From: Candidatus Woesearchaeota archaeon
GTDB taxonomy: Archaea; Nanobdellota; Nanobdellia; Woesearchaeales; 21-14-0-10-32-9
DNA: 45,333 nucleotides
Assembly: GCA_007117755.1 (NCBI GenBank)
Contig: SKFY01000014.1
Location: 1-45,333 of the forward strand
Direction of reading: 5' to 3'
A model generated the notes under the pieces. That model did no database searches. It saw only the letters and a list, made by a program, of their open reading frames with translations, and was not told the origin of the DNA. This document shows, piece after piece, positions 20,589 to 37,912 of this stretch. Position 1 is the stretch's first letter; each line of letters opens with the position of its first letter. The translations under genes and the position numbers were made by a program.

Positions 20589-20900
20589 GGGGTTGGGTGA
20601 GTATAAGCCGCCTTCTGTAAACCTTCCTAGACAGGAACAGGTTTTAGTAGCATTTTACTAAGCCTCTTAAATCCAGAGTTGCATCAGCCAAGGACTCACA
20701 GTTTCATCAAATCTCTTTGTCAAAGTCTAATCCAGACGATTGTCATACCGAACAAAGAGCTGTGTCTTTTCTGAGTGGTTGCCATCCCTATTAAGGATCT
20801 CTACCATTGTTTTTTATGAAGAGTTGGCTTTTTTTTATTTGATGGGCGGACTTTCCTCCTTATAAAAATAAATAAGGATTGCTACTTGTCACCCTACCCT
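20589..20900 (-). ncRNA. rnpB: RNase P RNA
   Basis: The minus strand contains the universal CR-I GGAGGAAAGUCCGCCC and CR-V UUACAGAAGGCGGCUUAUA. The terminal P1 helix pairs GGGUAGGGUGA (5') with UCACCCAACCC (3') with one mismatch. A TATA lies ~30 nt upstream and an oligo-T follows the 3' end. Length is about 312 nt. Confidence 0.85.
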
Positions 20901-20991: not shown

Positions 20992-21987
20992 ATGTATACT
21001 TTCATGGCTCACGATCTTTTAAGGATTAACAATATTAGTAAATCTTACGGAGATATAAAAGTTCTTAATAATATAGATTTAGATGTTAAACCAGGAGAAA
21101 TAATAGGCATTATAGGTAGTAGTGGTTCTGGAAAAACAACTTTTTTACATACAATAATAGGTTTTACTAAGCCTGACACAGGCGATGTTTTGTTTAGACA
21201 AAGACACTTAGTAGAGGGTGTTGATGATGTTGAAGATATTTACAGATCTATTTTTAAAAAGCCTTCAGAGTTTAAAAGAACATATGGATTCGCCGCTCAA
21301 GTTCCTAGTTTTTATGAAAAATTAACTGTTAAAGAAAATCTACATTATTTTGCAGAATTATATGGTTTGGGTAAGGAATCCGCTATTGCAAATATTAATA
21401 CCTTGCTTAAGCTTTTGAATTTGGAAGAACATTCTAATTTATTAGGTAAGAATTTATCAGGAGGAATGGAGAGAAGACTTGATATTGCTTGTTCTTTAAT
21501 ACATAATCCTGAATTGTTAATTCTTGACGAGCCCACGGCTGATTTAGATCCTGTTTTGAGAAAAAATATTTGGGAGATGATAAAAAAGATTAATAATAAA
21601 GGTAAGACCATAATATTATCAAGTCATCACTTGAATGAATTGGAAGCTCTTTGTGATAGGATAGCAATTATTATGAGTGGACAAATAGTGGAATTGGGAA
21701 CTCCTTCTCAGCTCAAGCAGAAATTTATAAAGACTGAAGAAATAATAATACAATCTTATCCTGGTAATTATAAAGATTTGAAGCCTGTAATAAATAAAAA
21801 TCTTAAGAAAAAAATAAGTAGTATTTCAATAGAACACGAAGGTCTTTTTGTTAAAACGGAGAATCCTCAAGAAGTTTTAAATGATATTATTAAGATATTT
21901 GAAAAAGGTAAAGAAAAAATATTGGAGTTAAAATTGACAAAGCCTAGTTTAGACGAGTTATTTATAAGCTTACAGAAGAAAAAATGA
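20992..21987 (+). CDS. ABC transporter ATP-binding protein
   Basis: Walker A GSSGSGKTT, signature LSGGMERRL and Walker B LLILDEPT. The in-frame ATG at 21004 (MAHDLL...) sits 29 nt from a TATA-like aagtttaaaaa and may be the true start. Confidence 0.85.
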   Translation: MYTFMAHDLLRINNISKSYGDIKVLNNIDLDVKPGEIIGIIGSSGSGKTTFLHTIIGFTKPDTGDVLFRQRHLVEGVDDVEDIYRSIFKKPSEFKRTYGFAAQVPSFYEKLTVKENLHYFAELYGLGKESAIANINTLLKLLNLEEHSNLLGKNLSGGMERRLDIACSLIHNPELLILDEPTADLDPVLRKNIWEMIKKINNKGKTIILSSHHLNELEALCDRIAIIMSGQIVELGTPSQLKQKFIKTEEIIIQSYPGNYKDLKPVINKNLKKKISSISIEHEGLFVKTENPQEVLNDIIKIFEKGKEKILELKLTKPSLDELFISLQKKK

Positions 21988-23906
21988 AAACTACTAATTC
22001 AATAAGGAAAAGTTTGAAAATACTTTTAAGATCTAAATCCTCTGCGATAGTAGTTTTATTAGCTCCTTTAATAATAGTCTTGATTATAGGCTTGGGTTTT
22101 TTAGATACTGGCGAGACTATTATGAATTTGGGAGTTATAACGCCAAGCACTACTGATACTACTGAAAGGTTTGTGAGGAATCTTGATACTGTAGAGAATA
22201 ATATTATAAGATATGAAGTGATTGAAGATTGCGTACTTAGTATACAAGAAGGTAGGGTTTTAGCTTGTGTTTATTTCCCACCAGGCTTTGAAATAACTGA
22301 TGAAGCGAGTGAAGAGATTACTTTTTATATTGATGAGTCAAGAATAAATCTTGTTTATAGGTTAATATCGAGTTTGAGTTTGAGTGTGGAAGGTGAACAG
22401 GCAGAGATCAGAGAAGAAATAACTAGTGATATTTTAAGTGTTCTTGATCAGACAAGCAGAGATGTGGATAGGACAATTACAGAAACTATATCTATAAGGA
22501 GTTCTATTAATACAGTTCTTGAAAAAATAGAAGATGCTTCTAAAGAGTTAGGGGATTTAGATACCAGTTCTGAAGATTTCGTTATAGATGATTATAGTTC
22601 TGAGCTTGATGATTTAGAAGAAGAGTATTCTTTATTAGTTGAGAGAGCGGAGAAAGTAATTGATGAATCTAGTCAGTTTAGTAATGAATCAGCTGCTTTT
22701 GATGATGCAATTACTGATTTAGACGATGTTTTGTATGATTCTGATGACGTAATAGAAAATTTTGAGGTTTTAAGTGATGCTTTAACGTTAGTTAGTGAGA
22801 GTTTTGTTGATTTGCAAGCTAAACTATCTGATGTTGAAAGTACCAGTAGTGAGGTTCAAAGTGCTTTAGATAGTATAGAAGATGAATTAGATGAGATTAA
22901 TACAGCTTTAGATTCTTTAAGAACTAGACAAGATTTGATGGTTGAGAGAATTGACCAAATGCAGTTTAGGGATGCGGGGAGGATAGCAAGACCCGTGGGG
23001 ACGAATATAGAGCCTATAACTAGTGACATGACTAGACTTACTTATAGCTTTCCTTATTTGTTAATGTTAGTTATAATGTTAGTAGGTGTTATGCTTAGTA
23101 GCACATTAGTTTTTATGGAAAAAGATAGTAAAGCTTATTTTAGAAATTTCACAACGCCTACAAAAAACATATTTTTTACAATGGTTACTTTTTTAACATC
23201 TGCTTTAGTAATATTTTTACAAGTTTTCATAATAATGATAGTTGCTTATTTCTTCCTTAACGTCCCAGTACTTGATAATCTTAGCGTTACAATCACTTTA
23301 TTGCTTTTAGCCACCATAGTTTTTATAATGATAGGTATGTTTATAGGTCATTTGTTTAATACTAGCGAAGCTATAACAATGGCTAATATAGCAATAGGAA
23401 GCATATTCATATTCTTATCTAATTTAATATTACCAATCGAGACTTTATCAGAAACTATACAAAAAATTTCTAGTTATAATCCTTATGTTATTATGAGTGA
23501 AAGCTTAAGAAGTAGCTTGTTATTTAACTCTACTTATCAGTCTTTATTGACTGAAATACTTCTTATCATTGCATACTCAGCCATATTATTTATTATAATA
23601 CTAGTCTTGCTAAAAATTTCTAGCTCTAAATACATATATGATTTAAGACATAAAAAAAATAAGAAGAAACAAAAAGGAGAAGATTTCATAATTAATAAAA
23701 AGAAAATAACTAGTGTAGAATCTTTATTTGAAGCTTTAGAATCTATTAGTGAAAAGGAGTATAAAGAATTAACAACGCCTAAGAACGTGATAAGCGAATG
23801 GTTAAAGGAAGAATTAGGACGAAAATATTTGGCTATGAGGATTAAAAAGAAAAACAAGAAAGACGCACTTAACATAATAAAGAAAAGACTTAAGAAAAAG
23901 AAATAA
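21984..23906 (+). CDS. ABC-2-type transporter permease with a large acidic extracytoplasmic domain and a Lys-rich C-terminal extension
   Basis: Its start overlaps the ATPase stop (ATGA). It has one N-terminal TM helix, ~300 aa of D/E/S-rich helical sequence, a cluster of ~5 TM helices and a ~90-aa K-rich tail. Confidence 0.7.
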   Translation: MKTTNSIRKSLKILLRSKSSAIVVLLAPLIIVLIIGLGFLDTGETIMNLGVITPSTTDTTERFVRNLDTVENNIIRYEVIEDCVLSIQEGRVLACVYFPPGFEITDEASEEITFYIDESRINLVYRLISSLSLSVEGEQAEIREEITSDILSVLDQTSRDVDRTITETISIRSSINTVLEKIEDASKELGDLDTSSEDFVIDDYSSELDDLEEEYSLLVERAEKVIDESSQFSNESAAFDDAITDLDDVLYDSDDVIENFEVLSDALTLVSESFVDLQAKLSDVESTSSEVQSALDSIEDELDEINTALDSLRTRQDLMVERIDQMQFRDAGRIARPVGTNIEPITSDMTRLTYSFPYLLMLVIMLVGVMLSSTLVFMEKDSKAYFRNFTTPTKNIFFTMVTFLTSALVIFLQVFIIMIVAYFFLNVPVLDNLSVTITLLLLATIVFIMIGMFIGHLFNTSEAITMANIAIGSIFIFLSNLILPIETLSETIQKISSYNPYVIMSESLRSSLLFNSTYQSLLTEILLIIAYSAILFIIILVLLKISSSKYIYDLRHKKNKKKQKGEDFIINKKKITSVESLFEALESISEKEYKELTTPKNVISEWLKEELGRKYLAMRIKKKNKKDALNIIKKRLKKKK

Positions 23907-25088: not shown

Positions 25089-26717
25089 TTAATTAAATAT
25101 AAATGCGAAGTTAATTCTGAAACTTTTAGCTCTTTCCCAAAAATCTACTTTGTTTTTGTAAATATCTTTATTATCTATTACGTGATTATTAGATGCGCAG
25201 AATAAATAATGATTTTTCGTAGGTTGACAAGCTGATTTATTTATTTGAGCTTCACGCATATAAACAGTGTTGTTTTTAACCAGTAATTCTTCTACTCTGC
25301 TTTCTGCTATGTGAAAAGGAAAATTAGTTATTCCCGTTATAGTATTTAGTTTTATACTCGTATTCGTATCAATACTCACTCCTTTAAAAGAAATCATTGA
25401 ATTGTTAAACTCTAAGGTATCCATATAACCAGGAAGTGTTATGTTACAGCTACAATTACCAATACTCGTACTACAGTCTTTTATTTGACGAGCAACATCA
25501 CCTAATAAATATTCTATTCTATAACTAGCATTTGTGTACTCTCCTGCTTTAAATTGATTAAAACGATTAGGTACAATATCTAAGGTTTGTGTTCCTGTTT
25601 GAACACCTCCTTCAATAACTTCTTCAACGTCTGAAACGTTCAGGAATTCTAATGCGACGCCATTATCATATATTAATTCAACATCTCTTTCAAAGTCAAC
25701 TATGAAGACTTCATCATAATAACTATTATTGAAATAAGCTCTTTCTCCACCACTACCTTCAATGAAATCTATTAATTCTCCAGTCACGACTAAGAAATCG
25801 TCATTTGTTGATAAATTCCCGAGATTATAATCGCTTAAAGGACAAGATCTTGAAATACTAACATTCCTATTTCTTTCCAAAACTTCTTGAACACAATTAT
25901 CATAATCATCATTACAACTAGCATGTAAATCATCAACGAAATCAAAAACATCATTATAAAACAATCTCAAACCCCTTATTACATGGGTAAAAGAATAATC
26001 CCCGCGCAACATACCCATAACGGATCCTGACCTTGCGGAAGCACCAACTACATTAGCATTTTCATCTAATAAGTAAATACTAGGGAACATATTGTTAATA
26101 CGATCATCTAAAGCAGATTCATAACTAGTCCTACCCACACCTGTGTATACACCTATTTCGCAACTACCTCTATAATTAGCACCTGAATCTTCTGCTTTAT
26201 ATATTCCGTTCCAATCATTTCCATCGCCCCAATAAATATACACATAACTATTGATGGGTATGTGACAATTAGAATTAGGATCGTCATTAACAGATATGGT
26301 GAATTTAGCAGCGGGATCTGTACGTGTACTAGTAACTCCTTTGTCGAAATCGGCTTCTACTGAGCTTTCTTGTTCAACATCACTTATTGAACGCAAAGAA
26401 TAAACACCTCTGTTTGAAAATCCTCCTATTTCTTGACACATAACGTCTTCAAAAAAACCTCTTTCTTCAAAAGGAATGAAACACCAACCCCTGACACTAG
26501 CATCGAATTCTTCTCCTTTACCAGTACTCCAGTCATCATAATCCTGTCTGTCAGGAGTGTAATAAATAACGCTTTTAATATTAGTAAAGCTAGGTAAAAC
26601 TTCATCATTTTCAATAGTAGATTCTATTTCTCTTATTTGTTCACTACTAATATCAGCCGCGACTAAGGGTAATAATAAAAGTAAAGCCACTAATATTATC
26701 ATACTTGTTTTTTTCAA
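25089..26717 (-). CDS. secreted MltA/3D-domain-like (double-psi beta-barrel) putative murein lytic transglycosylase with an unknown ~300-aa C-terminal region
   Basis: Sec-type signal MKKTSMIILVALLLLLPLVAAD. IYYTP...GFFEDVMCQEIGG resembles MltA (YYEP...FF.QIQGSG). SVNDDPNSNCHIPINSYVYI...YKAEDSGANYRGSCEIGVYTG resembles the 3D domain (VAVDP..IP.G..V.I...A.DTGGAI.G..IDI). The TTG start overlaps the amidase stop (TTGA), with GGAGG 7 nt upstream. Confidence 0.5.
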   Translation of the reverse strand: MKKTSMIILVALLLLLPLVAADISSEQIREIESTIENDEVLPSFTNIKSVIYYTPDRQDYDDWSTGKGEEFDASVRGWCFIPFEERGFFEDVMCQEIGGFSNRGVYSLRSISDVEQESSVEADFDKGVTSTRTDPAAKFTISVNDDPNSNCHIPINSYVYIYWGDGNDWNGIYKAEDSGANYRGSCEIGVYTGVGRTSYESALDDRINNMFPSIYLLDENANVVGASARSGSVMGMLRGDYSFTHVIRGLRLFYNDVFDFVDDLHASCNDDYDNCVQEVLERNRNVSISRSCPLSDYNLGNLSTNDDFLVVTGELIDFIEGSGGERAYFNNSYYDEVFIVDFERDVELIYDNGVALEFLNVSDVEEVIEGGVQTGTQTLDIVPNRFNQFKAGEYTNASYRIEYLLGDVARQIKDCSTSIGNCSCNITLPGYMDTLEFNNSMISFKGVSIDTNTSIKLNTITGITNFPFHIAESRVEELLVKNNTVYMREAQINKSACQPTKNHYLFCASNNHVIDNKDIYKNKVDFWERAKSFRINFAFIFN

Positions 26718-27877
26718 CTTAACTCCTCCATTAATCTGAAAACTTCCGAGTAATTAAAAGCTGGGCCCGGATCAGATTTTTGTCTGTTAATTTCATCATG
26801 ACCAATTATGTGATTCCTATCAACTCTTATATTAGGATGTCTTTCAATAATATCATTAATTAGCTCCGCAGTAGATCTTATTTGTTCGGGAGTGTAAGCT
26901 TCCCAGCATCTACGTTCTCCACTAAGTTGATGAGGTACGTTAGGATTGCCCAAGTAACAACTAGTTACGGGACACGTAGAGTGGGAATAACCACAGCCTA
27001 CTAAACTAATACCTATAGATCGGGAGTTATAACCCGCATCACAAACTTCTTCTGCATAACCTAAACAACCAGCATGATTCGCAACTTTATTTTCATCTAC
27101 AAATTGAAATACTTGACCGTCTTTGTCAATTACGTAATGATAACTGAAACGTCCTTTACCGCCGTTCCACAGAACATTAAAAGTTGAGTCTGCAGAGGTA
27201 GTTACTGTGTAATGCATAACTATGGTATCTACTTGGCCATGTCTAGTTGAGTATGTTAATCCGTCTCTTTGCATGTATCCCCTGCTATTTTCGTAATAAT
27301 CTGTACTTATTGGTTTTTTAAAAGTTATTCTATAATCTCTTAAATCTCTGTAAATAATTGTTTCTAATTGTGATAAGCTATCAATCCTTACTAAATAATC
27401 ATTATTTTTTCCTTCTATGTTTATTTCGTATCCTGGTTGTCTTAAATTACTGGGATGATTAGCAATTGTGGTATAAAAATAAGGTTCTAAATAGTTTGTG
27501 AAACTCTCTTCAATATCCGGTTTGCATTCATTGGTTATAATTGGGTAAATGAATTCTCCACATTCAAATTCTTCTATTTCATGTTCATATGCTTCAACGT
27601 GGTATCCTGAAAAATCATTCAGCACATTTATTGTTTGAGCACTAGCTATTTTCATTGATGAATCTAAATAATTAAATTTTTCTTGTTGCGCGTCATAGGC
27701 GTGCATAACGGATAATTGATTATAACCTATGAATTCTGTTTCTTCTAACGCGGTTAGTAGTAAAAAGAGTGCTCCTACGAAGAATAAGACGAAGGCGAGG
27801 ACTAAGAATAGTAAAGTAACTACGCCTTTTTTGTTATTTGGTGAGTTCCCCATAATTTTTTTTCCCATAAAAAACAT
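26714..27877 (-). CDS. N-acetylmuramoyl-L-alanine amidase (Amidase_2/PGRP fold) behind a class III signal/TM anchor
   Basis: C-terminal domain DTIVMHYTVT...FSYHYVIDKDGQVFQFVDENKVANHAG...YNSRSIGISLVG...YTPEQIRSTAELINDIIERH...IIGHDEI...KSDPGPAF matches the Amidase_2 consensus (H.T...sYHy.Id.dG.i.q.v....A.HAg..N..SIGIe..G...yT..Q...l..L......I.gH.e....K.DPGp.F). The N-terminus is ...NNKKG|VVTLLFLVLAFVLFFVGALFLLL. Confidence 0.8.
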   Translation of the reverse strand: MFFMGKKIMGNSPNNKKGVVTLLFLVLAFVLFFVGALFLLLTALEETEFIGYNQLSVMHAYDAQQEKFNYLDSSMKIASAQTINVLNDFSGYHVEAYEHEIEEFECGEFIYPIITNECKPDIEESFTNYLEPYFYTTIANHPSNLRQPGYEINIEGKNNDYLVRIDSLSQLETIIYRDLRDYRITFKKPISTDYYENSRGYMQRDGLTYSTRHGQVDTIVMHYTVTTSADSTFNVLWNGGKGRFSYHYVIDKDGQVFQFVDENKVANHAGCLGYAEEVCDAGYNSRSIGISLVGCGYSHSTCPVTSCYLGNPNVPHQLSGERRCWEAYTPEQIRSTAELINDIIERHPNIRVDRNHIIGHDEINRQKSDPGPAFNYSEVFRLMEELS

Positions 27878-27897
27878 CCTTTATTAATAACTTTTTT

Positions 27898-28440
27898 TTA
27901 ACGACCACCTCTAGAAGGTCTAGGAACGAAGTATTCTGAAATACTCCTAACATCATCACTTGGTTTTATTAGTGTTGCAATAAAATAATAATCTTCACCC
28001 ATCATATTAGGCGTTAATTGAGGTTGACCAAAATCTAAAAACCTATATTGAATAGGAGCTCCCTTGGTGCAATCAAAATCCTCATCTTCAACTTTTTTTA
28101 TCCTAAAAACTAATTCGTTCCTACGAGAAATGCCTACTTCCTCATGTACAAAATCACTTAGTTTTTCTTTGAAACTTTCACATTTGTCTTCGTTCATATA
28201 CTCTACTAATAAATCAGCTACTGTGTTATTATTATTAGTATTATTAACAGGTAATCTGACAAGTGAATTCGTGAATGTTTGAGATTCTAAAAGCTTAGCT
28301 TCAGCTAAAAACCTATTTTTATTTTCTTGAATAGAACTGTTAAGAACAAACATTAACACTATACCTATTAGTATTAACATACCGAGAGCCATGAAAGCCC
28401 CTAAAAACTTCTCCATAATACCTTTTTTTCCTAATATCAT
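27898..28440 (-). CDS. type IV pilin-like (class III signal) protein, function unknown
   Basis: N-terminus MILGKKG|IMEKFLGAFMALGMLILIGIVLMFV; 180 aa. Confidence 0.55.
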   Translation of the reverse strand: MILGKKGIMEKFLGAFMALGMLILIGIVLMFVLNSSIQENKNRFLAEAKLLESQTFTNSLVRLPVNNTNNNNTVADLLVEYMNEDKCESFKEKLSDFVHEEVGISRRNELVFRIKKVEDEDFDCTKGAPIQYRFLDFGQPQLTPNMMGEDYYFIATLIKPSDDVRSISEYFVPRPSRGGR

Positions 28441-28447
28441 TTTATTT

Positions 28448-28906
28448 TCATATGTATAAATACGTAATTTTTAAAACTCCTATGCTACCATTTATAAAAA
28501 CGGGATACTCGAAAAATAATTGGTCACCGGTTAATAAAACCATTACGTTCTCAGTCTCAACATAACCTGTTTGTAAATCACCTGAAGAGTTAAAATAAGA
28601 ATACTCCACTATTAAACCACCTTCGAAACGACTTTTTAAAGGAATACAATCTTTAAAGTCTTCCTCGTTAAACTTGTTTAAATCTATACTGCCAAAACCA
28701 TGATTTTCATCAATCAAACAGTCTCTTAACAAAACAGATTCATAAATCTGATATTGAACAACAGGAAAAACCCCACTAGATAACTCACTAATATTACCCG
28801 CGTAAGCTGTAGAGAAAGAAAAAACAATAAGTAAAAAAGGCAACACAACTAATAAGAAGTAAAATAAGTGGTCAGCTTCAGTCATACTTAAAACGCCTTT
28901 TTTCAA
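28448..28906 (-). CDS. type IV pilin-like (class III signal) protein, function unknown
   Basis: The TTG start overlaps the upstream stop (TTGA), with GGAGG 7 nt upstream. N-terminus (M)KKG|VLSMTEADHLFYFLLVVLPFLLIVF. Confidence 0.55.
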   Translation of the reverse strand: MKKGVLSMTEADHLFYFLLVVLPFLLIVFSFSTAYAGNISELSSGVFPVVQYQIYESVLLRDCLIDENHGFGSIDLNKFNEEDFKDCIPLKSRFEGGLIVEYSYFNSSGDLQTGYVETENVMVLLTGDQLFFEYPVFINGSIGVLKITYLYI

Positions 28907-29688
28907 TTTGTAACCTCCATTATCTCATCAGCTAATGAAAAACTATAACGACTACCACTATATTCGTTAGGTAACCAAATAACTAAGATGTTCTCCATAA
29001 TAACTTCTTCACGATAACTATTAACACCCATTTCCCTCATGTTAGCACCTAAAAAACAACCAAGTTTACGGTACTCGGGGAAACGCTCAGGATACCTGAC
29101 CATAAAAGGACCGTCATGAAGACCGATAAATAAAAGTATGTCTGCTTGATGATCAAAAGTAGGTATTGGATAACCGTTAAAACCGAGATGATGATTGAGA
29201 TTCTCCACGAAATTAAAACTACCAACACCTATAGAATTTACTTTTACAATCCTATTATCTAAAATACCTGGTAAACTATTACAAAAAGATCTTAATTCAC
29301 CAATATCTTTAATCCCGAATTCTAATTCATCACCTTGCCTATAAATAGGTAAAGTAACACCTCTTTGAGATGTGAAACCAATTACTTCAACACCAGTAAA
29401 AGTTCTGAACTCACTCACGTCACTACCTTCCAAACTAGAAACCCTTACGCTATCACTACTTACAACCTCTAACAAATAATTAGGTCCTGCGCTATAAACA
29501 ATTTCTACGTCGCTACGCGAAGCAGTAACGGACTCTATTAATAAAGCTAAATCCCTGCTGAATAATTCTTCTTGACTAGAAACGCCGTAGTTTAGAAGAT
29601 TCATCATGCCAAATAATATCAGAGCGCCTATAGCTACGTTAAAGCCAGTAAAGAAAACCATTTGAACAGAATTTCCTTTTTTATTCAT
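28903..29688 (-). CDS. type IV pilin-like (class III signal) protein, function unknown
   Basis: I prefer ATG 29688 (GGAGG 6 nt upstream, TAATG overlap with the upstream stop) to the track's TTG at 29715. N-terminus MNKKG|NSVQMVFFTGFNVAIGALILFGMM. Confidence 0.55.
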   Translation of the reverse strand: MNKKGNSVQMVFFTGFNVAIGALILFGMMNLLNYGVSSQEELFSRDLALLIESVTASRSDVEIVYSAGPNYLLEVVSSDSVRVSSLEGSDVSEFRTFTGVEVIGFTSQRGVTLPIYRQGDELEFGIKDIGELRSFCNSLPGILDNRIVKVNSIGVGSFNFVENLNHHLGFNGYPIPTFDHQADILLFIGLHDGPFMVRYPERFPEYRKLGCFLGANMREMGVNSYREEVIMENILVIWLPNEYSGSRYSFSLADEIMEVTN

Positions 29689-30386
29689 TAAGAACCTCCT
29701 GGTGTTGGAGAACAATTATTATCGGAAGAAAAGCAAAAACTAATAACACCACCTTCTTTTTTAGTTAAATAAAAATAAGAGTCACGCACGAGATCATGAC
29801 GGATGCCGAAACTGTTAGTCCATTTAGCAGTATCTGCATCTGGATCGACAACATCCGGATTGACAACATCCTGATCGTCAGGATAAGCATCTTCAAACAT
29901 TATTTCTTCTTCAATAACATAGTTTTCAAAGGACAAACAAGAATACTCGCTGCAAGAATACTCTATAGTAATCATCTCACCATGTCTTTCATTAAATCTT
30001 TGCACTCCTTGATTACATAAACAAATACACAGATTATTAGAGTCGCAAGAACTAGGTTTAAAATTGCTTGTTACATCAGAAAAAAGATGACGATTGCGCG
30101 AAATAGCCAAAGGACCAGGCTTATAATCATATTCACTATCAGGGTTTAAAAAAACTATTTTTGAATCAGGCTTTAAACTAAATCTGAAAGACTCCGTGGA
30201 GCCTTCATCCATGCTAATTAAAGTTTCTTCTAAATAATTCGTGAAAATTTCTAATTCTGTAGTATCCTCTCCGAAGAAATAACTTCCTAAACGAACAGTG
30301 AAAGTACAGGAAGCAATAAATAAAGACATAAATAAAACTAGGCTTAATATCCTAAAATACATAGTGCTAGTCTGTCCTTTTCTCAA
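29688..30386 (-). CDS. type IV pilin-like (class III signal) Cys-rich protein, function unknown
   Basis: TTG start with AGAGGT 8 nt upstream. N-terminus (M)RKG|QTSTMYFRILSLVLFMSLFIAS. It contains a Cys cluster SSCDSNNLCICLCNQG...YSCSEYSC. Confidence 0.55.
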   Translation of the reverse strand: MRKGQTSTMYFRILSLVLFMSLFIASCTFTVRLGSYFFGEDTTELEIFTNYLEETLISMDEGSTESFRFSLKPDSKIVFLNPDSEYDYKPGPLAISRNRHLFSDVTSNFKPSSCDSNNLCICLCNQGVQRFNERHGEMITIEYSCSEYSCLSFENYVIEEEIMFEDAYPDDQDVVNPDVVDPDADTAKWTNSFGIRHDLVRDSYFYLTKKEGGVISFCFSSDNNCSPTPGGS

Positions 30387-30393
30387 AATAAAA

Positions 30394-30567
30394 TTACCTC
30401 TTTATTAAAAAAAATATTAGTAGTCCTAAATCAACATCTCCCGCGCCTGCTATACCTTCTAATAATCCTCCGCTGTGGTTAAATGCGAGGTATCCTAGTA
30501 GTAAAACTAGCAGTCCTAACACGAAATATATTAGTTCTTGTATTCCTAATGCACCTTTTTTTTTCAT
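30394..30567 (-). CDS. mini pilin-like ORF (57 aa; not in ORF track)
   Basis: Hand translation gives MKKKGALGIQELIYFVLGLLVLLLGYLAFNHSGGLLEGIAGAGDVDLGLLIFFLIKR. Its N-terminus closely parallels that of the 590-aa protein (KKAMGIREVIYWLIGIV). Confidence 0.5.
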   Translation of the reverse strand: MKKKGALGIQELIYFVLGLLVLLLGYLAFNHSGGLLEGIAGAGDVDLGLLIFFLIKR

Positions 30568-30620
30568 CACGTCATCACCCTTGTTGTTAAGTTATTAAAT
30601 CTTTTAATTTTTAAAACTTT

Positions 30621-32012
30621 TTAATTAAGCTCATCAAATGAAATATAGCCATAATTATCAGCATAACTTGCTACATTGGAGTTAGGAGGCCCTATGAAGA
30701 TTACTTCACCATTACCTCTAAATGCATCCTCAAGAATCCTGGAAACATCACCTCTAAATATAACTTCATTTAAGTTATTATCATCAAAAGCTTTTTCTCC
30801 TATAAGTTCTAAACTTTCAGGGAATTCAACCCTTGTTAAATTATTTGATCTGAAAGCAAAATCCCTTATTTCTTCAATATTATTCCCGAATTTGACTTCA
30901 GACAATTCATTCATACTAAAAGCATGAATACCTATAGACTTAATACTGTCTCCAAATTCAACTTTTGATAACTTATTTTCACTGAAAGCACCACTTGGAA
31001 TAGTATCAATTGTATCAGGAAACTCTACAGACTCTAAGTTTTTACGTTTAAAAGCGTCCTGAGCAAGTGCAACAACCGTTCTACCATCTATTTCCCGAGG
31101 AATTACTAAACGGGTTTGTGGAGGTGCATAATCGCTGAAACCCCAAACCGCGATAGAATTATCCCCCCGTGCAGAATACATAAAAATGTTATAACCTGCT
31201 AAATTTCTAGAATTATCATCACAAAACGCATCGTGTTCTATCATCCTTTTTTTTAAAGTGACAACATCATCAAAATCAGTATCTAAGCAACCTGGTCTTA
31301 TAATATCCCTAATAATAGGCATTGTTCTAGCAGGATCCCTACAAGCTGTAACGTGAGCATTCACCACTCTTCTCCCAGTTACGGGAATGAAACAAATATT
31401 ATCCTGGTTTTTTAATATGTATAAAAAATAATTGTGTGAATATCTATAATTTATTTTTTTTTTTTTTTCTAAAAGTAAGCTTTCCCATTCTTCAAAAGAT
31501 AAACTTTCAACACGTGAAAAATCTATATTAGATGGATAAAGACCTCTATTATAATCCCTAATTTCATCATATAAAGATTTGGCTTCTTGTTCTCCATAAA
31601 CTACGCAAGGTTTTAAATCGTTAAATTCATGACGTTGTATTACATTCTCCCCACTATAAAGTTCTAAACGAGTTACTGAATTTTCCTCTTTTAAACTTAT
31701 AGAGAAATCATTGTCAAAAAAACTCTTGTGAAAAATATCAATTACTCCAAAACAAAAATTTTCATCAGACTCCACCACGTTTGTTAATTGATTGCGAAAA
31801 CCCGAGAATACATCCATAGCATCACGCTGATCCATAACTATAACTTCTCTACCCCCTCCGGATCTACTACGCTCAGAAAAATCTAAAAAATCAATTGCCC
31901 TATCAAAAGTAGGTAATAAGCCAGACTGTATACTGTTAAAGATGAATATTAAGAATAAGACTACTATAACTGCGGATACAAGCGTTACAGCACTCAAACC
32001 TTTTTTATTCAT
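30621..32012 (-). CDS. class III signal protein with C-terminal BspA-type leucine-rich repeats
   Basis: N-terminus MNKKG|LSAVTLVSAVIVVLFLIFIF. The C-terminal ~140 aa hold ~23-aa repeats (FPDTIDTIPSGAFSENKLSKVEF / GDSIKSIGIHAFSMNELSEVKF / GNNIEEIRDFAFRSNNLTRVEF / PESLELIGEKAFDDNNLNEVIF). Confidence 0.7.
   Translation of the reverse strand: MNKKGLSAVTLVSAVIVVLFLIFIFNSIQSGLLPTFDRAIDFLDFSERSRSGGGREVIVMDQRDAMDVFSGFRNQLTNVVESDENFCFGVIDIFHKSFFDNDFSISLKEENSVTRLELYSGENVIQRHEFNDLKPCVVYGEQEAKSLYDEIRDYNRGLYPSNIDFSRVESLSFEEWESLLLEKKKKINYRYSHNYFLYILKNQDNICFIPVTGRRVVNAHVTACRDPARTMPIIRDIIRPGCLDTDFDDVVTLKKRMIEHDAFCDDNSRNLAGYNIFMYSARGDNSIAVWGFSDYAPPQTRLVIPREIDGRTVVALAQDAFKRKNLESVEFPDTIDTIPSGAFSENKLSKVEFGDSIKSIGIHAFSMNELSEVKFGNNIEEIRDFAFRSNNLTRVEFPESLELIGEKAFDDNNLNEVIFRGDVSRILEDAFRGNGEVIFIGPPNSNVASYADNYGYISFDELN
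30692..31115 (-). repeat. protein-level LRR (BspA/LRR_5-type) repeat block inside the CDS
   Basis: About 5-6 units with the ..I..IG..AF....L..V.F periodicity. Confidence 0.65.
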
Positions 32013-32146
32013 CCGAACGTTACCTCTATCAAATTAAAAAATTCTCCACTTAATGTGTATATGAAATATATTATTACGGCAAGGGTAATAGCTATAGCAA
32101 CCCATTTTCCTAATTCACTAAATAATATATTGGCTTTTTTATTCAA
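32009..32146 (-). CDS. mini pilin-like ORF (45 aa, TTG start; not in ORF track)
   Basis: (M)NKKANILFSELGKWVAIAITLAVIIYFIYTLSGEFFNLIEVTFG. Its TTG overlaps the upstream stop (TTGAATAA) and its TGA overlaps the downstream ATG (ATGA). Length is 138 nt in frame. Confidence 0.45.
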   Translation of the reverse strand: MNKKANILFSELGKWVAIAITLAVIIYFIYTLSGEFFNLIEVTFG

Positions 32147-33473
32147 TTAAATCACACTCATCAAATATTTCACTAGCAGGAGCTATGATCAAAGCATTAT
32201 TACCTATTATGTCCGGACTGAATAATCTGTGATCACTGTCAAAAATTCTTTTGTACCACGCAGGTACGTCACTAGTGCTTACGAAAGCGACGTAGTAAGG
32301 AACAGATATGTTAATATCTTTTACGATAGGAGGGAATCTCATACCATCAGATATTTCAAACATGTAAGAATCACCAGGTATTACGTCAGAGCTTAAATCA
32401 GTTATTTTTAAAGTATCGTGAAGCTCTATTAAAGTATTTATTATAGCCTGGCCTAATTCTTGTACCGAAGAAACTTCAGAGCCTACTCCTTGATAGAAAT
32501 GTTTACTTAGTAAAGGTCTTATTTGTTCTCTTAATATTCTTGATTCATGATCACTGCCTATTAATAAACGCACTTCCTCATTTTGAATACCAAGCATTAA
32601 CATTACTCCTTGACGGGTAGATGCGTTATCTAATGCTATGTTATCAGCTATTTGTCTAGTTCGAGATAATGCTAAGCTATTGAATTCTTCAGCTACTACA
32701 ACAAATAAATCCCCTATGTTATCTTCTCTAAAATCCTGACCTAAACTTTGTATTTCGTTTAAAACATCATGGCTTAGTCTTCCAGAATAATCACTTACGT
32801 AAATGAAGTCGCTTTCATCAATTAATCGAGATCTTATACTTCTATGCATCAGGATTTCATGATCAGAAGGAGGACTTAAACGAGTTTGGAATTCGAAAGA
32901 AGCACTTATATACTCATAACTAGCTCCTCCTCTTAGTACTGGAGGATTATAAACTGTGTTCACCCAATAATTTACTACTTCTTCTGCAGAGATTGTTTTT
33001 TCATTACTATTACCCATATCAGGACGATAATCAATAGGGTAATCACTTATGTTACCTTCGAATTCATCCCCTATAAATCTGAATCTTGAACATACACCAC
33101 AAGCTTTTCCACTCTCCAGTCTTTGCTGTCCAAAAACGTCAAGTACTTGTCCGTCAGCGAATTTATACCAACACTCAGCAGCCAATTCACTTATAGTATT
33201 TAGAGCATCGTCCCTAGTGGATACTTCTACGTCTTTAGCTTCGCCAGTTTTACAAAATAAAGGAGGGAGTATGTCGTCTCCGAATATACCTATGTCTATA
33301 AAGTATCTGTCTCTTGCTAATACCGATTTTCTACACAATTCTATGTCTGCTGAGTCCGTAGCGGCTCTTATTATAGTTGCGTAGGCTATGCTGAGTATTC
33401 CACTAACTAATATTATTAATATTAAAACAACAAGTGTTTTCCTGGTTAATCCTTTTCTATACGCCAATACCAA
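32139..33473 (-). CDS. class III signal protein with a TPM-like domain
   Basis: N-terminus ...YRKG|LTRKTLVVLILIILVSGIL (TTG start at 33473 or 33467). The segment VSDYSGRLSHDVLNEIQSL...LFVVVAEEF...IADNIALDNASTRQGVMLMLGIQNEEVRLLIGSDHESRIL follows the TPM-domain pattern (V.D.A.lLs....l...l...i.vvtv....A..lf..w.iG....nGVLLLva..dR.vRIevGyGLE). Confidence 0.5.
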   Translation of the reverse strand: MVLAYRKGLTRKTLVVLILIILVSGILSIAYATIIRAATDSADIELCRKSVLARDRYFIDIGIFGDDILPPLFCKTGEAKDVEVSTRDDALNTISELAAECWYKFADGQVLDVFGQQRLESGKACGVCSRFRFIGDEFEGNISDYPIDYRPDMGNSNEKTISAEEVVNYWVNTVYNPPVLRGGASYEYISASFEFQTRLSPPSDHEILMHRSIRSRLIDESDFIYVSDYSGRLSHDVLNEIQSLGQDFREDNIGDLFVVVAEEFNSLALSRTRQIADNIALDNASTRQGVMLMLGIQNEEVRLLIGSDHESRILREQIRPLLSKHFYQGVGSEVSSVQELGQAIINTLIELHDTLKITDLSSDVIPGDSYMFEISDGMRFPPIVKDINISVPYYVAFVSTSDVPAWYKRIFDSDHRLFSPDIIGNNALIIAPASEIFDECDLIE

Positions 33474-33573
33474 TCACCCTGGCAGCTATTATTAGTATAG
33501 CTCCACATACTAAAATAGTTAATATAATTATCATTAATTGTTCTAAACTCATTAATCCTTTTTTTTTAACCAT
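33457..33573 (-). CDS. mini pilin-like ORF (38 aa; not in ORF track)
   Basis: MVKKKGLMSLEQLMIIILTILVCGAILIIAARVIGIGV is a class III-type N-terminus and helix only. Its 3' end overlaps the start of the next gene. Confidence 0.45.
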   Translation of the reverse strand: MVKKKGLMSLEQLMIIILTILVCGAILIIAARVIGIGV

Positions 33574-33623
33574 AACTTTCTCATTATGAATAGTCATAGA
33601 AGTGGTATTTAAAAGTTTCTTAA

Positions 33624-35396
33624 TCAGATAATATCAATGTATAATCTGTAATTATCTTGCACACTACTTCCTAGTTGGTTATATAGGCCAACGTTTAACG
33701 TGAATGTTTGTCCGGGTTCGGCACCTGGTATGCTTAAAGGGTTTAAATCTTTACAATCTTTATAAGATATGGTAGTGTCTACCCCGGGTCCTGTTAATGA
33801 TCCTGAACACTTAGCCGTATAATAATCATTTTCAATCCCGAAACTTATGTCTACATGATTATCAAAAGGCGGGTTTAAAGAGGCAGTGACTGTTTTTGTT
33901 CTTTGATTATTCATCTCGTAATCAACACTATTAACTCTAAATGTTAAATAAGGAGGATCTGTTATTACGTTAAAATACCTTCTTTGTTCGTCTACTATTG
34001 TCGCGTCTTCTCGTAATATCGTGATTAATTGATATCTTCCTATATCATCAGATCTTAAAGTTATGAAGTCGCTTAATGATAATTCGCTAGAACAACTACT
34101 TGTATCTCCCCAGACTTCTTGACCTTCTTGGTTTTGTATAGAGTAAGAACAAGTAAGTTCTTCATGGCTTCCAGTATATTTGACAGCGAGTGTTAAAACT
34201 ACTTCTTCGTCTGAAGAAACAGGTATTTCCGCAGGGAATGATTGGAAGTCTAGTAAGTCTTCATAATCGTCTATGCCGAATAAAGTGTATAATCGTGGAG
34301 ATTCAAAACTAGAATCTCTTGTTTGTAAAACCACTCTATACGTTGCTAGTTGAGAAGTGGTTTCTTCTCCGAATAATCTGAAAATTAGTTCATACTCAGC
34401 GTCTCTGATAAAGTTTTCAACATCATAATTTATTCTTATAGGTAATAACATTAAGTTTGAACAGCCTGAAATATCACTTCCTAAAAGATTTTGTGGAGAG
34501 CCAGCTTCGTTTAGTTTCCAGAAGTGGTAACCGCATTGTTTTACATTACTACCTTTGATATTGCTAACTTCTAAAAACACACTACTTAAAAACTCGCTAT
34601 CTTGTTTTAACTTTACTAAATCCACAGGTATTGTATTAACAGCTTCTTTTGAAAGGTGTATTGTTCTTCCATAAAGTTTAAAATCTGCACTAGCAGGAGT
34701 TACTATTTGAGGAGGCGGAGGAGGAGTTACAGGTTCAATAGTTGTCTCATCTGTTACTTCAGGAGGTTCTTCATCCGGAGGTATTACTGTGAAAGGTATT
34801 ATTACACTAGTCAGTATTTCTTCTTCTACACTAACTATTACTGTGAGTGTGTAAGAACCTACTTCTTCTTGAGAAAGACGGAATGTGTTATTGAAAATTT
34901 CTTCATTTTCATCTGTTTTAATGCTCGCTGTATAGTTCCAAGACATGTTGTTAGAAGCTATTCTACCATTGGAATCAGTCATTCTAATACTAAGATTGAA
35001 TTCTCGTATGTTATCAACCCATAATTCATAAGTGTAATTATTAGGAACTTGCAGTGTTTGTCTTTGATTATGCCTTACGACTTCATTATCTTCTTTTCTA
35101 ATTTGTATAATAGGAGGATCTTGAGTATCTACAGGCCTTCCTCCTGGTCTGAAATTAGTAGCGTTTACACAACATACTTGATTGGGGACGATGCTACCGT
35201 CTGATAATTTACATTGAGAAGAAGCTCTTATTTCTTGAGGTCCGCAAGAGTCCCTGCATTCTCCTGGGCAAATGCTTATTTGGTCTCCGAAGGGATCCCA
35301 GGCTTGGTATATACCGTATAAGATAGTTGTGAAAATAACTATGCCTATAAGCCAGTATATTACTTCTCTAATACCCATGGCTTTTTTGTTTAGCAT
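33624..35396 (-). CDS. large pilin-like (class III signal) protein: six-Cys knob, beta-rich repeats and a Pro-rich linker
   Basis: N-terminus MLNKKA|MGIREVIYWLIGIVIFTTILYG. Then ICPGECRDSCGPQEIRASSQCKLSDGSIVPNQVCCVN and the Pro-rich PPDEEPPEVTDETTIEPVTPPPPPQIVTP. Length is 590 aa. Confidence 0.6.
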   Translation of the reverse strand: MLNKKAMGIREVIYWLIGIVIFTTILYGIYQAWDPFGDQISICPGECRDSCGPQEIRASSQCKLSDGSIVPNQVCCVNATNFRPGGRPVDTQDPPIIQIRKEDNEVVRHNQRQTLQVPNNYTYELWVDNIREFNLSIRMTDSNGRIASNNMSWNYTASIKTDENEEIFNNTFRLSQEEVGSYTLTVIVSVEEEILTSVIIPFTVIPPDEEPPEVTDETTIEPVTPPPPPQIVTPASADFKLYGRTIHLSKEAVNTIPVDLVKLKQDSEFLSSVFLEVSNIKGSNVKQCGYHFWKLNEAGSPQNLLGSDISGCSNLMLLPIRINYDVENFIRDAEYELIFRLFGEETTSQLATYRVVLQTRDSSFESPRLYTLFGIDDYEDLLDFQSFPAEIPVSSDEEVVLTLAVKYTGSHEELTCSYSIQNQEGQEVWGDTSSCSSELSLSDFITLRSDDIGRYQLITILREDATIVDEQRRYFNVITDPPYLTFRVNSVDYEMNNQRTKTVTASLNPPFDNHVDISFGIENDYYTAKCSGSLTGPGVDTTISYKDCKDLNPLSIPGAEPGQTFTLNVGLYNQLGSSVQDNYRLYIDII

Positions 35397-35403
35397 GGGA
35401 TTA

Positions 35404-35643
35404 TCAACCCCCTACATGACAACAATAAGGACGATTAGGTTGACAACTATTATCACCATCAGGTAAATGAGCAGGTCCGCAGAATTCGGCTTGACACCTA
35501 CCTCCTAATCTGCTACAAGAAGCCGCGTCGTCCCAGCCATCCGCTGTGGTAAAGAATATATAAATCAGAGTTACCATAACTAACAGAGCTATTATTACAA
35601 CAACGACTGTAGTTATGGTTAATTCTGCTTTTTTATTTATCAT
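35404..35643 (-). CDS. small type IV pilin-like protein with a six-cysteine knob (candidate major subunit)
   Basis: 79 aa. MINKKA|ELTITTVVVVIIALLVMVTLIYIFF, then SCSRLGGRCQAEFCGPAHLPDGDNSCQPNRPYCCHVGG. Confidence 0.6.
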   Translation of the reverse strand: MINKKAELTITTVVVVIIALLVMVTLIYIFFTTADGWDDAASCSRLGGRCQAEFCGPAHLPDGDNSCQPNRPYCCHVGG

Positions 35644-35668
35644 ACTTTTGACAACTCACTTCTTTTTA

Positions 35669-35935
35669 TTATTGTGGTACACAACAAACTTCTCCATCAG
35701 GACATGAATAGCTAGGAGCTCTAACGTACGTAACATCTGGATTAGCTAGTGTTAATTCTTCACAACCTAGTTCTACTGGTTGACACTGAGCATCTCTTTC
35801 TAGAGAAACACATCTAGTTCCTTCGAAGACACTAGAACCTGCATTGAATACTAAAACTGCTAATATAACAAGTACTATCATAGCTAACGCCGCTGCTACG
35901 ACAACATTAAGACTTAATTCTGCTTTTTTAAACAT
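35669..35935 (-). CDS. small type IV pilin-like protein with a six-cysteine knob (candidate major subunit)
   Basis: 88 aa. MFKKA|ELSLNVVVAAALAMIVLVILAVLVF, then RCVSLERDAQCQPVELGCEELT...YSCPDGEVCCVPQ. GAGGTG lies 7 nt upstream of the ATG. Confidence 0.6.
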   Translation of the reverse strand: MFKKAELSLNVVVAAALAMIVLVILAVLVFNAGSSVFEGTRCVSLERDAQCQPVELGCEELTLANPDVTYVRAPSYSCPDGEVCCVPQ

Positions 35936-36011
35936 TATGACACCTCTTAGTTTACAAGGACTATTCTCATTTATAAATTTTTCTAAAAACCACGCCTAAA
36001 AAAAGTTTTTT

Positions 36012-36527
36012 TTATGTGCAGATTCTTATTTTAAAAAATACTACGACGTTGGTAAAACCTTCCCTTACGTTTTTAGGCGTGAATAATTCAAAACCTTGCC
36101 TGTTTTCAGCACATTCATTGGCTAAATAAGTTATTGTTCCAGAAGGACTTGTACGACTCACATTTATAAAGTATCTTAAGCCATACTCGTCAAAAGTATC
36201 ACCTACCATTTCTTTAAGAGTATCGTTAAAAAAAACACAAGCATCATAATAATCCCCGCATTCAAAAGTAGGCAGATCAAGTATACATTGTTCTAATACT
36301 TCACCCATATTTTTTTGTTTATCATTAGCGTCTTTACAAACAGTTTCGCTGTTAAAAAAAGCCGTTGCGAAATTCTCAATTAATTGACGTTCAGCAAAGG
36401 AATCATCGGGAGCCACCGATGAATCAGAAGAGTCTAATAAGAATACTAGTACGAAAAATAAAACTAGTGTTATTAATATAACTATTATTAACAAACCTAC
36501 TATTTCCATCTGGCTTTTTTTTCTCAT
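36012..36527 (-). CDS. type IV pilin-like (class III signal) protein, minor-pilin candidate
   Basis: MRKKS|QMEIVGLLIIVILITLVLFFVLVFLL. Its ATG overlaps the upstream stop (ATGA). Confidence 0.55.
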   Translation of the reverse strand: MRKKSQMEIVGLLIIVILITLVLFFVLVFLLDSSDSSVAPDDSFAERQLIENFATAFFNSETVCKDANDKQKNMGEVLEQCILDLPTFECGDYYDACVFFNDTLKEMVGDTFDEYGLRYFINVSRTSPSGTITYLANECAENRQGFELFTPKNVREGFTNVVVFFKIRICT

Positions 36528-37003
36528 TGAACACTAACCTCTAATATTGCAAAATAAGTTTTTTTATCTACGGGATGATAAACATTAATTGGATAAAAAG
36601 TTCTTTCTATACGCCTATTTTCTTGTAAATTATCAAAGAAGTTTATTGATTCATTGATTTGAAGAGTGGTGTTTAAATCATCATATATTATCAATGTTAA
36701 GTTAACATTGCCCATTCTTCTTATGTAATAAGGGTCGTCTTGTAAATTCTTAAAAGCTTTAACTTTAAAATAATCAAAGCATTTGTAACCTATAGTAGCT
36801 ACTTCACTTGTACAAGTGAATTCTTCCATGTTAGATATTCTTAAACTGGTGCTTAAAATGTCTAGATCAGACTCGTCTTCTAGTAAAGATTGTGTCTGGG
36901 TAGTTCTGAAATTGGATAAATAAACTAATCCTATGATTATTAAAATCATTACTATTATAACTACGGTTATTGATTCCCCGCTTTGAATTTGTGCTTTTTT
37001 CAT
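36524..37003 (-). CDS. type IV pilin-like (class III signal) protein, minor-pilin candidate
   Basis: MKKA|QIQSGESITVVIIVMILIIIGLVYL; 159 aa. Confidence 0.55.
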   Translation of the reverse strand: MKKAQIQSGESITVVIIVMILIIIGLVYLSNFRTTQTQSLLEDESDLDILSTSLRISNMEEFTCTSEVATIGYKCFDYFKVKAFKNLQDDPYYIRRMGNVNLTLIIYDDLNTTLQINESINFFDNLQENRRIERTFYPINVYHPVDKKTYFAILEVSVQ

Positions 37004-37027
37004 TATTAACTAATCCTTATTTGTTTT

Positions 37028-37876: not shown

Positions 37877-37912
37877 TATAAAACCTTCACCTTAAAAAAT
37901 TTTTTTTATTAA

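Follow-up and report, generated by a model that had tools for sequence, protein, structure and literature searches.

A putative pilin-like murein amidase in a cluster of pilin-like genes of Woesearchaeota

What would an archaeon do with a murein amidase that carries the N-terminus of a pilin? The question is raised by a gene on the minus strand of contig SKFY01000014.1 of a Candidatus Woesearchaeota archaeon (GenBank assembly GCA_007117755.1), whose whole 45,333-nucleotide (nt) length is the window analyzed here. An earlier reading, made from the letters of the DNA without database searches (the sequence-only reading), had proposed that this gene encodes a peptidoglycan amidase with a pilin-type N-terminus and that its substrate is presumably foreign. 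The reading that we now favor, with moderate confidence, is that the gene encodes a pilin-like murein amidase exported by a class III signal, that this protein belongs to a conserved surface apparatus of the filament type in Woesearchaeota, and that, with an MltA-like enzyme encoded by a coupled gene, it acts on the bacterial wall.

The context of the gene is archaeal, as the sequence-only reading had assumed, and Woesearchaeota-like. An archaeal origin of the window (G+C content, ∼31%) is supported in that it contains an archaeal signal recognition particle (SRP) RNA (Archaea_SRP; 10528 to 10802, minus strand; 146.7 bits) and an archaeal RNase P RNA (RNaseP_arch; 20591 to 20898, minus strand; 124.6 bits), both above the Rfam gathering score, and the window is colinear with the Woesearchaeota contigs described below. 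It also encodes replication factor A (RPA), NAC, and other archaeal housekeeping genes; no tRNA genes were found across the 45 kb.

A pilin-like N-terminus shared by contiguous genes

The amidase gene is laid out as follows (aa, amino acids).

26714 to 27877, minus strand: whole amidase gene, an open reading frame (ORF) of 387 aa with a class III-like N-terminus, a middle region, and an Amidase_2 domain
27824 to 27877, minus strand: basic leader, aa 1 to 18, ending in N-N-K-K-G, with a predicted prepilin peptidase site between G18 and V19
27746 to 27823, minus strand: hydrophobic helix, aa 19 to 44, 26 uncharged residues (hydropathy scan and AlphaFold helix)
27248 to 27745, minus strand: middle region, aa 45 to 210, with a long helix, a second helix, a beta-hairpin, and invariant C106 and C118
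26762 to 27238, minus strand: Amidase_2/PGRP-fold domain, aa 214 to 372, with zinc ligands H222, H360, and D369, and with K367, Tyr246, and Ser291
27868 and 27853, minus strand: alternative starts of the gene, at Met4 and Met9, respectively

Public gene calls use Met4, which gives a protein of 384 aa (P0001).

The N-terminus reads MFFMGKKIMGNSPNNKKG↓VVTLLFLVLAFVLFFVGALFLLLTAL, where the arrow marks the predicted cleavage site. The basic leader is followed by 26 uncharged residues, V19 to L44, which are the sole hydrophobic segment of the protein in a hydropathy scan; AlphaFold placed a helix at residues 13 to 40 or 41 (384-aa numbering), with a predicted local distance difference test score (pLDDT) of 90 to 95. 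We searched all ORFs of at least 45 aa for a strict pattern consisting of K or R, then G, A, or S, and then, within 8 positions, 18 uncharged and mostly hydrophobic residues. On the minus strand, 15 of 69 ORFs fit, all of them contiguous within 27877 to 38383. A 16th ORF in this run, at 28906 (MKKG↓VLS…), failed solely because residues close to the site are charged. Among the 55 plus-strand ORFs, the pattern occurred once, in an ABC permease. Thus, 16 contiguous genes (the amidase gene and 15 neighbors, not 16 neighbors, as had been counted from the sequence alone) carry the motif, versus 1 of the 108 remaining ORFs, and the other membrane proteins of the window do not have the K-G/A junction. 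This clustering of pilin-like N-termini is far beyond chance, and it confirms that the N-terminus of the amidase is common to its neighbors.

The leader is also kept by relatives of the protein. We found it in at least 75 divergent homologs, a lower bound because several further homologs were truncated or missed by the strict pattern. It is of the N-K-K-G↓Q type, mostly 3 to 15 aa long. Among the 75, position −1 is G in 58, A in 14, and S in 3; position −2 is K in 61 and R in 14; position −3 is K in 58; position −4 is N in 37; and position +1 is Q in 20. As the search pattern itself fixed position −1 to G, A, or S and position −2 to K or R, the information lies in how strongly G dominates position −1 and in which residues occur at −3, −4, and +1. 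The form N-K-K-G↓Q is known from archaeal pilins and archaellins. The bacterial N-methylation motif G↓FTLIE (G↓F/M-T-L-I/L-E) occurred in 0 of 216 family proteins, and full-length scans of Pfam and NCBIfam at a limit of 0.01 matched no pilin or class III N-terminal model. We infer the class III assignment of the amidase N-terminus from its motif, its conservation, and its context.

Between the helix and the amidase domain, the middle region (about aa 45 to 210) is, as first described, of unfamiliar fold. In an AlphaFold model (eight sequences; pLDDT, 72), there are helices at residues 13 to 41, 49 to 85 (the long one), and 119 to 135, and a hairpin at 147 to 164. A pilin head or another known domain was sought in this region and not found; neither Pfam nor NCBIfam gave a family match, Foldseek returned no PDB match, and the model consists of helices and one hairpin. 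There was also no paralogy between the middle region and the neighboring pilin-like proteins beyond the N-terminal helix. The amidase domain that follows contains a Cys-rich insert of about 26 aa. Among the four closest homologs, six Cys residues of the domain and two of the middle region are invariant, and these eight Cys residues would fit an extracellular protein with disulfides.

The amidase domain and its active site

Pfam Amidase_2 (PF01510) matched aa 214 to 372 over profile positions 3 to 131 of 131 (E = 9.2e-30; 104.1 bits; cutoff, 26). By sequence, the closest solved relatives are AmpDh2, AmpD, AmpDh3, and AmiD; phmmer matched AmpDh2 (E = 4e-12), and the alignment brings the H, H, and K-x-D motifs of the two proteins together. 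For the model that AlphaFold built from 58 sequences, the mean pLDDT was 82, with the domain mostly at 77 to 98 and one 10-residue block at 62. The top Foldseek match to this model was AmpD (2y28; E = 3.8e-10), all 34 PDB matches at E values of ≤1e-3 were Amidase_2 proteins or peptidoglycan recognition proteins (PGRPs), and the Foldseek probability was 1.0 for AmpD, AmpDh2, AmiD, endolysins, and PGRPs. The Amidase_2 identity first proposed from motifs therefore holds over the whole profile as well as in the predicted structure.

The motifs that had been quoted as zinc ligand contexts are all present: VMHYT (H222), ANHAG (H268), IIGHDEI (H360), and KSDPGP (K367 and D369). Their interpretation needs one correction. 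H222, H360, and D369 are intact and align with the zinc ligands of AmpDh2 and T7 lysozyme, as K367 does with the lysine of these enzymes; the His of ANHAG is conserved, but we take it, from the AmpD and T7 lysozyme structures, not to be a ligand. In the alignment of 58 sequences, H222 and H360 are invariant, D369 is nearly so, and K367 is invariant or nearly invariant. The statement that the protein carries the full Amidase_2 pattern was likewise accurate for the ligands and K367, but not for the AmpD-type catalytic Glu (IGIE; AmpD Glu116), the position of which is occupied by Ser291 (IGISLV) in what is a site of the T7/PGRP type.

Loss of this Glu might mean a dead enzyme, a possibility that we rejected because Tyr246 covaries perfectly with the loss. 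When T7 gene 3.5, taken from a phage collection, was aligned to the domain, its Tyr46 fell on Tyr246 and its Cys on the Glu position. The alternative catalytic pair of T7 lysozyme and PGRPs (Tyr46 and Lys128) is thus represented in the window protein by Tyr246 and Lys367; the catalytic roles given here to these residues and to those of AmpD are the ones described in published work on the two enzymes. Among 220 amidase domains, all 41 Tyr-bearing sequences were without Glu (having Ser, Ala, Gly, or Cys instead), and 177 of the 179 sequences without the Tyr carried Glu or Asp. In a neighbor-joining tree, the Tyr-type sequences formed essentially one clade, the exception being P0125, which fell among the Glu-type sequences, and most members of the clade carry the pilin-like N-terminus. 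Because this clade stands apart from T7 lysozyme in the tree, its Tyr would appear to have arisen separately.

By these alignments, the predicted active site is a hybrid of AmpD-type H-H-D ligands and a T7/PGRP-type Tyr/Lys pair. The enzyme is probably active because Tyr and Glu are mutually exclusive over the 220 domains.

A sister subclade differs in this respect. Its seven proteins (P0074, P0088, P0121, P0126, P0134, P0140, and P0144) have lost the zinc ligands (e.g., HYAQ-N and FYGY-N), and P0126, P0134, P0140, and P0144 are also fused to a region that resembles the Pfam domain 3D. This subclade probably represents a murein-binding pseudoenzyme.

A coupled MltA/3D-like gene and a conserved locus

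Immediately downstream of the amidase gene lies a second gene whose product may also act on murein.

25089 to 26717, minus strand: downstream gene, 542 aa, with a Sec-type signal (…PLVAA↓D) followed by an MltA/3D-like domain (AEDSG)

The Sec-type signal is MKKTSMIILVALLLLLPLVAA↓D. The TTG start of this gene overlaps the stop of the amidase gene (TTGA), and a GGAGG lies 7 nt upstream, an arrangement by which the two genes are predicted to be translationally coupled. A homolog search with the 542-aa protein returned only itself; its relatives were found through the C-terminal extensions of amidase family matches. In one of these, P0017 (1,007 aa), the 545 aa C-terminal to the amidase match the whole downstream protein (BLASTP E = 6e-45). 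Nine homologous N-terminal segments align well, and eight of them match Pfam 3D (PF06725; best E = 2e-11). When a profile of the nine was compared with the PDB, the best match was Escherichia coli MltA (2ae0; E = 4.8e-4), and the invariant Asp of AEDSG or AEDTG aligned with LDVGG of 2ae0, which contains Asp308 (ALDVGG), the catalytic Asp of MltA. The syntenic orthologs in L036 and L055 (locus numbers refer to the loci containing amidase homologs) have 3D matches above threshold, one of them at 30 bits. The window copy alone did not reach the Pfam 3D threshold, and it has Gly at the last of three Asp positions (the later IDIY motif).

Other family members suggest what the target may be. Long members add SLT, 3D, Peptidase_M23, and GDSL/SGNH domains behind the amidase. 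Because the partners are SLT, MltA/3D, M23, and GDSL domains, the target would be real murein and not an archaeal wall; lytic transglycosylases form 1,6-anhydro-N-acetylmuramic acid, which is not obtainable from pseudomurein. A foreign murein, as proposed by the sequence-only reading, is therefore still the best reading of the substrate. As a separate observation, a single pilin-like N-terminus is followed in some family members by as many as three or four domains that act on the wall; residues 1029 to 1198 of P0091 and 464 to 529 of P0124 are a GDSL/SGNH hydrolase or M23 endopeptidase in addition to the amidase and SLT, and the GDSL/SGNH domain is a possible peptidoglycan O-acetyl esterase.

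The first homolog search gave few matches, but every full-length one keeps the architecture of the window protein at 28% to 54% identity. A second search, seeded with an alignment, added full-length members, and when a profile was run exhaustively against 1.84 billion representatives, 413 proteins matched at E values of ≤1e-30. Contigs colinear with the window are L004 (also returned as L008), L036, L037, and L055, with amidases that are 33% to 54% identical to that of the window. In L036, a 189-kb contig of a Woesearchaeota metagenome-assembled genome (MAG) whose amidase is 33% identical, the order is a 3,026-aa gene, ∼16 small genes, a TPM gene, the amidase gene, and the 3D gene, with RPA and an ABC-2 transporter on the opposite strand. 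The order in the window is the same, as it is in L055 and L037, and L004 (P0002, amidase 54% identical) is colinear over the part that it covers. The record of L008 (L004; CAZAFP010000030.1) is labeled "uncultured Methanosarcinales archaeon," yet it is colinear with Woesearchaeota contigs and is probably misbinned or mislabeled.

More distant homologs of the Glu type stand in more complete loci. P0006 (from a Pacearchaeota MAG) and P0009 are encoded in compact operons that begin with a T2SSE ATPase (∼760 aa) and a ∼730-aa membrane protein with eight or nine hydrophobic segments, continue with several small genes of the class III-like kind, the amidase gene, further small genes, and Peptidase_A24, and are followed by RPA and RadA. 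In L001, L002, and L003, the amidase gene is flanked by a T2SSE ATPase and a polytopic membrane protein on one side and by Peptidase_A24 on the other. No extra murein enzymes were found in the Glu-type loci L001 and L003. By gene order, the amidase is a conserved member of a putative type IV-filament-like locus adjoining RPA across Pacearchaeota and Woesearchaeota. Adjoining P0009 in L003, at 11051 to 11938 (plus strand), is a gene for a 295-aa protein that begins like a bacterial lipoprotein (…LSASLFSSAC↓SS) and has no Pfam match.

The locus appears to be vertically inherited and chromosomal: it has RPA and an ABC transporter beside it and shares its gene order with Woesearchaeota contigs. 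A phage origin, which had been raised when the gene was first described, found no support in a tblastn search of 50,697 phage genomes (best match, 33% identity), nor did a viral origin in a scan of IMG/VR (30% identity or less, over the amidase domain only). The nearest genome matches outside the family are Glu-type amidases of Bacteroidota, Myxococcota, and Proteobacteria (26% to 37% identity). Bacteroidales and Myxococcota were considered as the source of the Tyr-type domain and rejected, since their genome matches proved to be of the Ala or Glu type. The family looks old within these archaea and ultimately taken from bacteria.

The remaining features of the cluster in the window are as follows.

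27898 to 38383, minus strand: fifteen codirectional pilin-like genes whose N-termini have K or R, then G, A, or S, and a hydrophobic stretch; colinear with L004, L036, L037, and L055
28440, 28906, 29715, 30386, 30570, 32012 (LRR_5), 33473 (TPM), and 33597, minus strand: starts of these genes, first part
35396, 35643, 35935, 36527, 37003, 37876, and 38383, minus strand: starts of these genes, second part
38385 to 45333, minus strand: giant ORF heading the cluster, >2,300 aa, its frame open to the contig end and its N-terminus truncated

Two of the pilin-like proteins have recognizable heads. One (30621 to 32012, minus strand) has a BspA-type leucine-rich repeat head (LRR_5; E = 1.5e-27) and is a possible adhesin; the other (32139 to 33473, minus strand) has a TPM domain head (E = 5e-5) and is found in the same place in L004, L036, L037, and L055. 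Four pilin-like ORFs, all on the minus strand, are shorter than the usual gene-calling lengths: 33457 to 33597 (46 aa), 30394 to 30570 (58 aa), 35404 to 35643 (79 aa), and 35669 to 35935 (88 aa). The 46- and 58-aa ORFs have counterparts in L004 (39 and 61 aa), L036 (46 aa), and L055 (51 aa), and the Cys-rich proteins of 79 and 88 aa are candidates for the major filament subunit. An exact lookup of a 156-aa gene gave no match.

The giant ORF had no Pfam or PDB match, and no SLT or other domain was detected in it. The 3,026-aa gene occupies its position in L036, and this conserved position suggests that the giant ORF may belong to the system. Castelle et al. (2021) described proteins of up to 3,000 aa with lytic-transglycosylase-like domains in these lineages. 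On the plus strand, an ABC ATPase and ABC-2 permease pair (20992 to 23906), just past RPA, is in the same place in L036, L037, and L055.

Proposed role, alternatives, and known systems

If our favored reading is correct, the precursor would insert into the membrane with its N-terminus in and its C-terminus out, and an A24 prepilin peptidase would remove the 18-residue leader after KKG. The 26-residue helix would then keep the protein in the membrane or allow the ATPase and platform protein to assemble it, along with the 15 neighbors, into a type IV-filament-like structure, where the size of its head (340 aa) would probably make it a rare subunit or one at the tip. The protein would thus be a surface-displayed N-acetylmuramoyl-L-alanine amidase of a Woesearchaeota-like DPANN archaeon. 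Its zinc head (H222, H360, and D369), in which Tyr246 and Lys367 would replace the lost Glu in the manner of T7 lysozyme and PGRPs, would remove the stem peptides of bacterial murein, and the coupled, Sec-secreted MltA/3D-like protein would cut the glycan strands. Acting together, the two enzymes may make a local opening in the bacterial sacculus where the cells touch, whether to attach, to feed, or to kill.

A different arrangement, the main alternative although we regard it as unlikely, would involve no filament. The protein would be a plain membrane-anchored ectoenzyme, either with an uncleaved signal anchor or retained in the membrane after cleavage in the manner of the bindosome, and the amidase and MltA-like enzyme would digest free murein debris from which an auxotrophic cell scavenges peptides and amino sugars. 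The protein indeed has a single hydrophobic segment, and the partner enzyme has an ordinary Sec signal. Several results speak for this arrangement and at the same time weigh against our favored reading. The curated Pfam models Class_IIIsignal and archaeal Pilin_N matched none of 10 N-termini (the amidase and nine neighbors) at E values of ≤10; Foldseek gave no PDB match to the middle region at E values of ≤1, so there is no resemblance to a solved pilin head; and the window, which ends inside the giant gene, contains no ATPase, platform protein, or prepilin peptidase of type IV filament (TFF) machinery. Also to be counted against the favored reading are a low-confidence break in the model between the hydrophobic helix and the next helix, the fact that the DNA of the Tyr-type loci could be read only up to the giant gene, and the fact that no host organism is known. 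On the other side, the G or A at −1, K-K at −2 and −3, N at −4, and Q at +1 are kept across homologs that are less than 30% identical; an anchor needs none of these, and a plain signal anchor would not require a conserved Gly or Ala at the junction. Furthermore, the gene is always embedded among pilin-like genes and, in L001 to L003, is flanked by the ATPase and the prepilin peptidase.

The remaining alternatives concern the activity, target, and origin of the protein. The Amidase_2 domain could be a binding module that recognizes murein as noncatalytic PGRPs do, making the protein a surface or pilus adhesin while the MltA-like partner does the cutting. The sister subclade, in which seven proteins have no zinc ligands and four of these are fused to the 3D-like region, shows that the domain is able to serve purely as a binding module, and the window protein itself is without the AmpD Glu; its activity with H-H-D ligands and Tyr is extrapolated from T7 lysozyme and PGRPs, which have a Cys ligand. 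These, too, are points against the favored reading. However, the window protein shares the three zinc ligands, Lys367, and Tyr246 with most of its clade, a conservation that would not be expected without catalysis, and we consider the binding module improbable. The known hosts of DPANN archaea are archaea, and the target might accordingly be an archaeal wall polymer, such as the pseudomurein of a host that is a methanogen. To this idea we give even less credence. The domains fused to the amidase in this family are of the SLT, MltA/3D, and M23 types, whereas pseudomurein has, by established biochemistry, neither the N-acetylmuramic acid C6-OH and beta-1,4 bond on which lytic transglycosylases act nor the D-amino-acid or Gly bridges cut by M23; moreover, the closest relatives outside the family are ordinary bacterial amidases. 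Finally, Amidase_2 is common in endolysins, and the gene might be a recent phage-derived or horizontally transferred endolysin, or misbinned bacterial DNA, and unconnected with the pilin genes. This is hardly credible given the low identity of the best phage match (33%) and the best IMG/VR match (30% over the domain), the archaeal SRP and RNase P RNAs, RPA, and NAC on the contig, and the colinearity of the locus in four other archaeal contigs, whose amidases are 33% to 54% identical.

How does the window protein compare with known enzymes? AmpDh2, AmpD, and AmiD (4bj4, 2y28, and 3d2y) have the same fold, H-H-D zinc site, and K-x-D motif, but they have the catalytic Glu (IGIE) where the window protein has Ser291, and they have neither the pilin-like N-terminus nor the ∼26-aa Cys-rich insert. 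They are cytoplasmic proteins, lipoproteins, or periplasmic proteins that recycle the producer's own wall. T7 lysozyme and the catalytic PGRPs resemble the window protein in having no Glu at IGI-x, a Tyr after a conserved Ser or Gly, and a Lys two residues before the third ligand; they differ in that this ligand is Cys rather than Asp, and the identity to T7 lysozyme is 26%.

Nonpilin domains behind a class III signal are found in the Sulfolobus bindosome and FlaFind-type proteins, which need a TFF-type ATPase and membrane protein. The sequence-only reading cited the bindosome as a precedent for enzymes with class III signals; its proteins are known to bind sugars and are not known as enzymes. 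They are solute-binding proteins of Thermoproteota, whereas the present case involves a murein hydrolase, a DPANN archaeon, and a cluster of 16 pilin-like genes. Murein hydrolases are also encoded within bacterial filament or secretion-machine loci, as in the cases of VirB1, FlgJ, and EtgA. Those enzymes open the producer's own sacculus; because the archaeon has no sacculus, the wall in question must belong to another cell.

The description of a surface-displayed amidase as a new use of the class III principle went too far, since modules grafted on pilins are widespread in bacteria: more than 1,200 modular type IV pilins with 264 architectures are known, including Streptococcus sanguinis PilB and PilC (PMC8179133). 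As in the window protein, the functional module of these proteins (IPR012902) sits behind a pilin-type N-terminus, and it presumably lies exposed at the tip; unlike the amidase family, they have G↓FTLIE and a canonical pilin module, neither of which we could recognize in the amidases. Nor is an archaeal murein hydrolase new in itself, having already been documented in Pacearchaeota and Woesearchaeota (PMC8204110, PMC9723730, PMC12352652). Archaeal peptidoglycan hydrolases, among them Woldo and Danwoldo, include some that kill bacteria and are reported to be prominent in Nanoarchaeota; the signals examined for them were of the Sec and Tat types (PMC12352652). Large lytic-transglycosylase-like proteins, found in Pacearchaeota and Woesearchaeota, have been read as a sign that the hosts may be bacteria (PMC8204110, PMC9723730). 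Like the window amidase, all of these are murein-degrading archaeal proteins with a proposed use against bacteria, but the three papers consider Sec and Tat signals or give no route of export, and they do not mention pilins, class III signals, TFF loci, or an amidase with a 3D partner. Conversely, two surveys of archaeal type IV filaments make no mention of amidases or peptidoglycan (PMC4858521; bioRxiv 10.64898/2026.04.22.720090). We found no description of a pilin or class III signal combined with a murein amidase in the literature searched, which was thin on subscription journals. Each element has its precedent, the murein hydrolases in these same lineages and the grafted pilin modules in bacteria; it is their combination that appears to be new.

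Whatever the role of the protein, the family demonstrates a natural switch between Glu-type and Tyr-type Amidase_2 domains, and an annotation rule based on the Glu would wrongly call such enzymes dead. A broader and more tentative proposal, which we think may well prove wrong, is that Woesearchaeota and Pacearchaeota build a type IV-filament-like organelle with murein-lytic subunits and that this organelle is a contact-dependent "drill" that opens bacterial walls. Its subunits would include the amidase, to which relatives would add lytic transglycosylases, an M23 peptidase, and an esterase. Whether some DPANN archaea have bacterial hosts is debated, mainly on the basis of lytic-transglycosylase-like domains (PMC8204110, PMC9723730). 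If the proposal is true, the drill would be the first archaeal surface machine dedicated to attacking or parasitizing bacteria and would be direct genomic evidence for cross-domain episymbiosis in DPANN archaea. The locus offers a concrete, testable mechanism, in which an apparently active amidase and an MltA-like enzyme are tied to a conserved pilin-like cluster and a pilin export signal, and it yields defined proteins, a predicted cleavage site, and a set of marker genes with which to look for lineages and their bacterial partners. It would also extend the idea of a module grafted on a pilin from bacteria to archaea.

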